A stretch of DNA of 39,903 bases from a virus (taxonomy: Duplodnaviria > Heunggongvirae > Uroviricota > Caudoviricetes): IMG/VR virus record IMGVR_UViG_2718218449_000013; one strand, given 5' to 3'. This document shows positions 21,001 to 24,000 of the stretch, one piece after another. Numbering within the stretch: position 1 is the stretch's first letter; each line of letters starts with the position of its first letter. Position numbers: made by a program.

Positions 21001-24000
21001 AAATTCCTCTGTACGTTTTGACTGAATACATGCCATTGCCTTAACGGCTGGCGTCACCTGATCAGCAAATCCATGTGCCAGACATTCGGCACCGGACATC
21101 CAGGTCTCATCCGCCAGCATGGCAGCAATTTCATCGGTGGTTTTCCCGGTTTTCTGTGCATAAGCGGGTAACAGAACCGCCTCAACTTTATCGAGCAGGT
21201 CGGCATAGGTGCGCATGTCCTCCGCATCACCGCCCGTAAAGCCAAATGGTTTATGAATCATCATGAAGGAGTTTTCCGGCATAATGACCGGTTTTCCCAC
21301 CATCGCAATGACCGACGCCATTGACGCCGCCACACCGTCGACATAAACGGTAATGGACGCACCATGTGTTTTCAGTGCATTAAAAATGGCGATGCCTTCA
21401 AAGACATCGCCACCCGGTGAATTGATATTGAGATTAATGTGGGTGATATCGCCCAGTGCATTCAGATCACTGATAAACTGCTTCGCTGTAACACCCCAGA
21501 AACCAATCTCGTCATAAATATAAATATCCGCGTCACTCTGGTGACCAGCCTGCATCCTGAACCAGGAATTATTCTTCGGACTGGTCGTCGGTGTGCTGCG
21601 GCTCCTGTCGTTTCGTTGCGGCACTGCTGCCTCCTTTATCACTGGCCGGATCGGTATCAAATACCAGATCCAGCTTGCGGTTTTCATCAATTTCGGCCTT
21701 GCGCCGACGTTTGACATCATCCGGATTACGACCACCTGCACGTACCCAGTCTGATTCTGTCGCTGCTCCACCACGAATCTGAATTTTCCAGGCCTCAGCC
21801 TCCTTAACAGGGTCAATCCACGGCATCACCGGTCCGGAATACACCGCGGTATACAGTGAAGAACGGTCAAGATCGCGGGGTAGCCTGATAACACCGGATG
21901 CCACAGCCTGTTTCAGCCAGGCACGATACATCGGGCGGGTGACGGCACCAATAAACCAGTCCTGCAGGATCAGGTAGCCATCAGTGGATTCAACCAGCTC
22001 CTGACGCTGGGCGCTGTAAGTGCCGTTATAGTTGCGCGCTGTACTGGAAAAAATTCAGACGACTGCCCGCCGCCACGGCACGCAACTGACCATTACGAAA
22101 AGTTTCAAGGTTAGGATTGGGGCGATCCGACTTCACCATTCCGATTTCTTCGCCGGGTTTCAGATCGTCGTAAATAATGCCTGGCTGAATGGTAAGCTCG
22201 CGTTCCTTATCCTTGCTGCCATTACCATCCGGTTCATAGCTCTGCCCATCGCCTTTCCGGATGTACATCCCCAGAGCAGCGGCGATCCTTGCTGCAGTCA
22301 GCTCAGAATCCTCATACTCTTTCAGGGCACTGAGGCGGATCAGCACACCGGACAACAAAGACGTCCCGCGCATCTGGTGCAGACGGCGAACAAATTTAAG
22401 ATGCAGCATTCGCTCTGCATCCACTTCTTTGGTTTCCATCTGCCGTCCGGATACGGGACGGCTTTTATACACCAGATATTTTTCGGGACGCCCCCAGTCA
22501 TCAACAAACACGCCCTGATTCAGCCTGTTGCTCTCATCACTGGTCATGGGAATAAAGTCTGGCTCGAGCGCCTCCAGCCAGAAATGAACACCGGCAGAAG
22601 GCGTCAGGCTGTTTATGCGCCCGGAAACCATCTGGGCAAACACCTCACCATCGCGCAGCCAGGTACGCAGCATCAGACGTTCCAGCATCGGACGGGTAAA
22701 CTGCCCGGTGACTTCCGGACTGACAGACCATTCACTCCATCGGGTGCGTATCTCCGCTGCCAGATCACGGGCAATGGCCCCATTGCGTAATACCGGATGT
22801 GGCTCGACAATAATCCCGTTTTTCCCCACCACCCGTTCTTCCAGCTTGTCAAATACACCAATAACCAGATCGTGGTTGTTATCAAGGTAACGGGCCTGCT
22901 CACGTAACGACACGGCCCCGTACTGGCTTAACTGGTCGGCAGTTCGGTTTTCCCGCCGGGCTTTGTGTGTCCGCGTCGTTTTTACGGCCTCATAAGCCTG
23001 GATCACCGCACGGGAACGCAGCCTTGCCGCTTTCCATCCTGGTGAAAAAACGCCAATCACATCATCAAGAATTGCCATCAGAACCTCGCCAGCCGGTACC
23101 CGGGATGCCCCCGTCGTCGTGTAATCAGAGCCGCAAGGCGGCGCTCCCACTCCTGCCGTCCCTGCCGGATCTCAGATAAGTTTTCCATGGTCATCTGCTG
23201 ACCATTAAAGGTGACGGATTTTCCGTCCAGCACCGCCATTTCAGCTTCCGTATAACGCTGAATCATGGCTTCGATATCATTCTGGTTCATAACCATCCTC
23301 CGGAAGTCAGCCAGGGGTTAACATCGTCAGTTACTGTTTTCTTCCGTTTTTGTTTTTTAACAGGCGTGGATACCGGTTCCGGTGAGGGTGACGGTTCGGT
23401 ACTGTCCGGGACACTCTCCAGCCAGGTTTCCCGGCTCGCCCACCCCGGTGCATCCGGCCAGCGGATCTTTTCGTATCCATGCAGAATGACCAGAGCCTCG
23501 GCATACACCATCAGGTCAAAAGCTTCGTTGGCACCGCGACCCGGCTTACTCCATTTCCCGTCACTACTCCGCTCTTCATACGTCAGTTCGTCGTAAAACC
23601 AGCTCCCCAGCCAGTCAGGGAAATGCACATAGCCGGGACCTGGAGAGTCACGCCATAACGCGTTATTCACCCGGTCTTTCAGTGCATCCGTCTGAAGAAG
23701 CCAGAGCGGCACATCACCTGCGGCCTGCGCCCGTCGGCCCGTTCGTCCGGTGTTATCAGGGAATGTACGGGTGATCAGTTTTGCGCGCCGGATGCTGTCG
23801 CCCTTAAACAGGTAAATACGTTTACCAAGGCCATCACGACGGCAACGACGCCAGAATTTATAGGCATTATCAGTGACCCCGTCTTCACCGCCGGAGTCCA
23901 CCGCCATTGCCATCAGTCGCATTTGTTGAGAAGGATCGGAGGCCAGCGGCCAGCTTTTATGAAAAACATCCGTCAGCAGGACATCCCAGTCTTCCGGATA

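Follow-up and report, generated by a model that had tools for sequence, protein, structure and literature searches.

The portal gene in the stretch of viral DNA analysed here (39,903 nucleotides, the window) is read in two different frames, and the change of frame falls in a run of six identical bases. This raises the question of whether the gene was inactivated by mutation, whether a full-length portal protein is still produced by recoding or by switching of the run, or whether the run was miscounted during assembly. The break is very probably real: an inactivating frameshift, inherited vertically, in the portal gene of Sp3/CP-933K, a defective lambdoid prophage beside ybhC in E. coli O157:H7. 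The features concerned are listed in Table 1.

Table 1. Positions of the portal fragments, the lesion and related features in the window
Feature	Position	Strand	Description	Basis
Portal gene, 5' fragment	22026..23078	-	343 native codons, 7 out-of-frame codons (FQYSAQL) and TAA	Translation, PF05136, annotation
Portal gene, 3' fragment (+1 frame, IFSSTARNYNGTYSAQRQELVES...DDQSEE*)	21569..22054	-	Second wing segment, tunnel loop, crown	Translation, gpB alignment
Lesion	22048..22055	-	Coding strand GAATTTTTTCC, against GAGTTTTTCC in intact orthologues	Orthologue alignment, allele counts
Terminase large subunit gene (terL)	23287..25389	-	Intact, 700 aa	
Gene between terL and portal	23078..23296	-	72 aa	
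ClpP-like prohead protease/major capsid protein fusion gene	19597..21624	-	Intact	
IS3-family element	12739-14048		1310 bp, in the tail tape-measure gene	
bet pseudogene	33677-34324			Annotated in Sakai
Truncated integrase pseudogene	37715-38485		771 nt, against 1071 nt in O55:H7 CB9615	Annotated in Sakai
ybhC	38620-39903		Marks the integration site	

The portal ORF is of the lambda family, starts with the ATG at 23078 on the minus strand and leaves its native frame at 22048-22053, where an A6 run on the plus strand is T6 on the coding strand. Translation of both frames confirmed the +1 switch that a preliminary description had placed at this run. From the ATG the gene reads ...AAGSRLNFFQYSAQL, and the upstream frame ends, as had been described, with ...RLNFFQYSAQL and a stop, the TAA at 22026-22028, which lies seven codons past the run. 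The total product is 350 residues, 343 of them native and 7 aberrant. The rest of the portal, IFSSTARNYNGTYSAQRQELVES..., is encoded in the +1 frame, which opens at 22054, directly behind an in-frame TGA at 22055-22057, and runs to its stop at 21569-21571. The downstream frame is separate and open, as had been proposed, but it is not open only from just after the run, since it begins one base 5' of the run on the coding strand. Both frames are open together only across 22029-22054, so the shift must fall there. Deletion of one T in silico results in a 1509-nt, 502-aa portal ORF, which agrees with the earlier prediction that a run of five bases would give one continuous ORF of about 500 aa. The window contains 51 A6/T6 runs, so the T6 run in the portal gene is unremarkable by itself; what makes it significant is not the homopolymer alone but the division of one portal into two halves that are in different frames.

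The gene order on the minus strand is terL, the 72-aa gene, the portal gene and the protease/capsid fusion gene. The TGA of the 72-aa gene overlaps the portal ATG (cTGATGg), therefore 23078 is the true portal start, and intact orthologous loci have the same overlap and arrangement of the small upstream gene and the portal gene. The homologue of the 72-aa gene is named 'head-to-tail joining protein W' in some phage records and is hypothetical in RefSeq. The start of the protease/capsid gene overlaps the 3' end of the portal gene by 56 nt. The 'Head' function of Sp3 was scored as absent by Asadulghani 2009, whereas the label in current RefSeq is a protease/major-capsid fusion.

The two portal fragments are annotated in different ways. 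In Sakai the 5' fragment is ECs_0826, and positions 21569-21931 of the 3' fragment are the pseudogene ECs_0827. The PGAP call for the 5' fragment is WP_010904538.1 (374 aa, 22029-23150, minus strand), with a GTG start at 23150 inside the upstream gene, and the call for the 3' fragment is WP_127446149.1 (111 aa, 21569-21904, minus strand). In most RefSeq records of O157 both are separate, unflagged 'phage portal protein' CDSs, and a pseudogene flag is present only in the curated record of Sakai. The PGAP treatment of both fragments as ordinary CDSs in most of these records is a point against reading the locus as a pseudogene.

The Pfam model PF05136 for lambda-family portals (gathering cut-off 32.9 bits) matches the repaired protein with 272.5 bits over residues 35-372, through the break, and the N-terminal fragment with 249.3 bits over residues 35-343. 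The locus belongs to this family by an HMM score above the cut-off and by its position in the head module. A single ORF of about 500 aa with wing, stem, clip and crown is not present in the window, as the frame is broken after residue 343. Therefore, the locus is a pseudogene of the PF05136 family and not a functional member.

A comparison with orthologous portal genes had been called for in the preliminary description, and the intact relatives do have one continuous portal ORF with T5. Sixteen phage records, those of mEp460, cdtI, Tritos, Ayreon and phi458 among them, encode 502-aa portals without interruption, at 98.8-99.8% identity to the repaired protein. For the five named, which are isolated phages, the amino acid identity is 99.2-99.8%; their ORFs are uninterrupted, whereas the portal of the window is broken. 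Since close phages carry a continuous ORF, the continuous ORF is the working form of the gene. More distant is the portal protein gpB of lambda, which belongs to the same PF05136 family and whose gene likewise follows the terminase gene and a small upstream gene. Its sequence is distant, however, and the group of the window has a ClpP-protease/capsid fusion instead of the C/Nu3/E head genes of lambda.

The gpB structure suggests which parts of the protein are lost. Residues 305-440 of the repaired protein align to residues 332-474 of gpB (PDB 8K38) with no gap at the break (E = 2.5e-4), which places portal residue 343 near gpB residue 370, at the stem-to-wing junction. In gpB the wing comprises residues 24-249 and 368-452, the stem 250-279 and 343-367, the clip 280-342 and the crown 453-511, and Gln379 touches DNA (PMC10721106). 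What remains in the 350-aa fragment is the first of the two wing segments, the clip and the two stem helices. On this alignment it should be without the second wing segment, the whole crown and, by position, the DNA-contacting tunnel loop. Such a truncated product should not form a working dodecameric portal, a loss of function that is inferred from the truncation.

The nature of the mutation was read from the alleles at this site, which were counted as exact k-mers among 5,426 complete E. coli genomes. The 64-mer of the window (A+T6) has 287 exact matches and the intact 63-mer (G+T5) has 716; the window sequence minus one T (A+T5) and the G+T6 combination each have 0. A simple A+T5 ancestor was rejected on its lack of any exact 63-mer match in this set, and G+T5 was found instead. 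Intact orthologues, namely the 716 genomes with the exact 63-mer, CB9615 and phages such as mEp460 and cdtI, have GAGTTTTTCC where the window has GAATTTTTTCC. The allele alignment took in E. coli 55989, an ST131 strain, 2013C-3264 and O55:H7 CB9615, all four of which have the intact allele, CTG AGT TTT TCC AGT (L-S-F-S-S); the allele of the window is CTGAATTTTTTCCAGT. As aligned, the lesion reads as a G-to-A change with one extra T and not as a pure T5-to-T6 slip, although it can also be written as a G replaced by AT, and the alignment is ambiguous as to which of positions 22053-22055 bears which change. The earlier suggestion of a slipped-strand inactivating mutation is therefore right in the inactivating frameshift, but a simple T5-to-T6 slip does not account for all of the change, because the ancestor is G+T5 and not A+T5. 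Both A+T5 and G+T6 are absent from the complete genomes, so the order of the two changes is not readable there.

The lesion follows the O157 lineage. Among the matches listed, all serotype-labelled genomes with A+T6 are O157, and Sakai, EDL933, TW14359 and EC4115, each sequenced independently, are among the carriers. The 1582-nt portal region is 100% identical in dozens of O157:H7 chromosomes, including these four and Xuzhou21. In a collection of 15 billion proteins, at least 1000 contigs encode the 374-aa PGAP portal product, and at least 1000 encode the exact protein predicted for the ancestor, with S342 in the background of the window. The A+T5 protein, with N342, which corresponds to the gene of the window minus one T, is found on 6 contigs, the longest of 5,529,407 bp. 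These six may represent rare reversion, an intermediate that has survived, or miscalled homopolymers in assemblies that are not part of the RefSeq complete set.

These counts bear on two readings in which the portal gene would not be permanently broken. The preliminary description had offered an assembly or sequencing error as an alternative, in which the true run is five T and the portal gene is intact. Homopolymers are classic places for length miscalls, and the six contigs with the A+T5 protein fit such an error. However, the same T6 allele is shared by the 287 complete genomes, which come from many laboratories and platforms; it is present in the Sanger-era sequences of Sakai and EDL933 and in the resequenced EDL933, the A+T5 63-mer is missing from all 5,426 complete genomes, and the curators of Sakai annotated a pseudogene. 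Since independently sequenced genomes produced with different technologies carry the T6 allele, the assembly error is excluded, with practically no probability left to it. A phase-variable contingency switch, in which populations would alternate between an active portal with T5 and an inactive one with T6, is extremely improbable. The lesion does sit in a homopolymer, and an in-frame A+T5 version does exist on the 6 contigs. A 6-nt tract is short for a contingency locus, however, and its length is invariant: no tract-length polymorphism was found among complete E. coli genomes (287 with A+T6, 0 with A+T5 and 0 with G+T6), and the truncated product on at least 1000 contigs stands against 6 with the in-frame version. 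The other irreversible defects of Sp3 would also leave any switching without a phenotype.

It is also very unlikely that the T6 run (U6 in the mRNA) is a programmed +1 frameshift or transcriptional slippage site from which full-length portal protein is still made. Such recoding would yield the trans-frame peptide ...SRLNFSSTARNY... (...SRLNF/SSTARNY...) across the break. In its favour, the run is open in both frames, UUU-bound tRNA-Phe can shift its pairing to the +1 frame along the U run, and one U dropped from the mRNA would restore the frame. However, the frameshift is not conserved: the ORF is continuous, with T5, in 16 of 16 close relatives among phages and in all of the non-O157 genomes sampled, and every orthologue fetched or sampled outside O157 lacks the shift. 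The flanks do not differ from those of the intact genes, so there is no newly evolved stimulator. The site reads CUG AAU UUU UUC CAG, in which the zero-frame A-site codon is the common UUC, neither a stop nor a rare codon, and a -1 shift would land in the wrong frame. In prfB a Shine-Dalgarno-like element lies 3 nt upstream of the frameshift site, and there is no such element at this position here. Efficient RNA polymerase slippage generally takes runs of about 8-9 nucleotides or more. The portal run is only 6 nt, and Sp3 is not packaged (PMC2669165). Spontaneous slippage at a trace or low level may still occur on the run. The retained 350-residue fragment might have a putative role as a dominant-negative decoy against portal-ring assembly by superinfecting or co-resident phages of the mEp460/cdtI type, or rare T6-to-T5 reversion might return the Sp3 head genes to the 'defective prophage pool'; either proposal is a long shot. 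Perfect conservation of the lesion across O157:H7 is expected of a young clone anyway.

The genuine inactivating frameshift is thus the preferred explanation. The intact G+T5 allele would have become the A+T6 allele of O157:H7 by one extra T and the G-to-A change. Translation from the normal portal ATG would then end early, leaving the 350-residue product and probably no working portal. The portal frameshift would be one step in the progressive decay of Sp3 on the O157:H7 branch, in a prophage that is already immobile. The portal change itself, its fixation in the O157:H7 lineage and its absence from intact relatives are observed directly.

The identity of the prophage supports the earlier reading of an inactivating mutation that adds to prophage defectiveness, since it is the defective Sp3 and its portal was already scored 'D' (PMC2669165). 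Judged by its sequence, the window is prophage Sp3 (CP-933K in EDL933) of an E. coli O157:H7 strain, adjoining ybhC. The whole window matches Sakai 889775-929677 with 99.76-99.95% identity, and the integration lies between ybhC and the bio side of the lambda attachment region. The Sakai annotation around this region is 'prophage Sp3, lambda-like phage', and the Sakai copy has the same gene order, the same ybhC site and a portal region that matches the window at all 1582 nt, lesion included. The window is nevertheless from a strain other than Sakai, and it has an extra 1310-bp element of the IS629/IS1203 type in the tape-measure gene. In Table 1 of Asadulghani et al. 2009 (PMC2669165), the portal, integrase and general recombination of Sp3 are scored as defective ('D') and its repressor, antirepressor and replication functions as absent. 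Sp3 is not excised and shows no circularisation, replication or packaging (Table 2 of PMC2669165).

The prophage of O55:H7 CB9615 is the same one at the same ybhC site, and its portal gene (WP_000985949.1) matches that of the window except for the lesion and one further base. It has the G+T5 allele in an intact 1509-nt gene with a continuous 502-aa ORF, whereas the window has A+T6 and a broken gene. The window has also lost int, xis, cI, cro, cII, O and P, all of which are still present in CB9615. In contrast, the protease/capsid gene of CB9615 has an internal stop and the copy in the window is intact. Different head genes of the same prophage are inactivated in the O55:H7 CB9615 and window lineages.

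Compared with CB9615, the window is without about 7.4 kb from gam to ninB, with the junction at about 33650-33654. The loss takes in gam, kil, cIII, cI, cro, cII, O, P, ren and ninB (23621-31057 of the retrieved CB9615 sequence) and joins a bet remnant to the ninE region. This bet/ninE junction is found in 296 complete genomes, as against 287 with the 64-mer of the frameshift. The bet frameshift is also annotated in CB9615, so it is probably older than the portal lesion. The portal lesion is one of several lethal Sp3 defects, together with the truncated integrase, the lost repressor and replication region, the broken bet and, in this window, the IS insertion.

The inserted element carries 25-nt terminal inverted repeats (TGAACCGCCCCGG...), with OrfA at 12793-13119 and OrfB at 13116-14006. 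Its RefSeq label is 'IS3-like element IS1203 family', and we take it to resemble IS629. The IS junction is present in only 4 of the 5,426 complete genomes (strains 272, 3-5-1, 08-3918 and 27_141091), and the tape-measure gene is intact in Sakai (ECs_0837). The shared junction indicates that the window comes from the sublineage of those four strains, and the insertion into the tape-measure gene is one more lethal defect in the Sp3 of this strain.

The portal defect of Sp3 is already known from the literature (PMC2669165) and from the Sakai annotation. The present analysis adds only three things: the mutation is compound, the O55:H7 copy of the prophage does not have it, and the lost parts are placed on the portal structure. 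A literature search on the CP-933K portal and O55 returned nothing relevant. The lesion is real, fixed in its lineage and ordinary, and it has little importance beyond bookkeeping. It is one of several documented defects that leave Sp3/CP-933K an immobile carrier of nleB2-1, nleC and nleH1-1, and it can be used as a lineage marker to tell the O157:H7 version of the prophage from that of O55:H7 CB9615. Two of these, nleC (1710-2729) and nleB2-1 (2763-3743), encode type III secretion effectors; they are located at the end of the prophage, with 100% identity to the Sakai copies. This effector cargo has been kept in O157:H7 as the phage functions decay.
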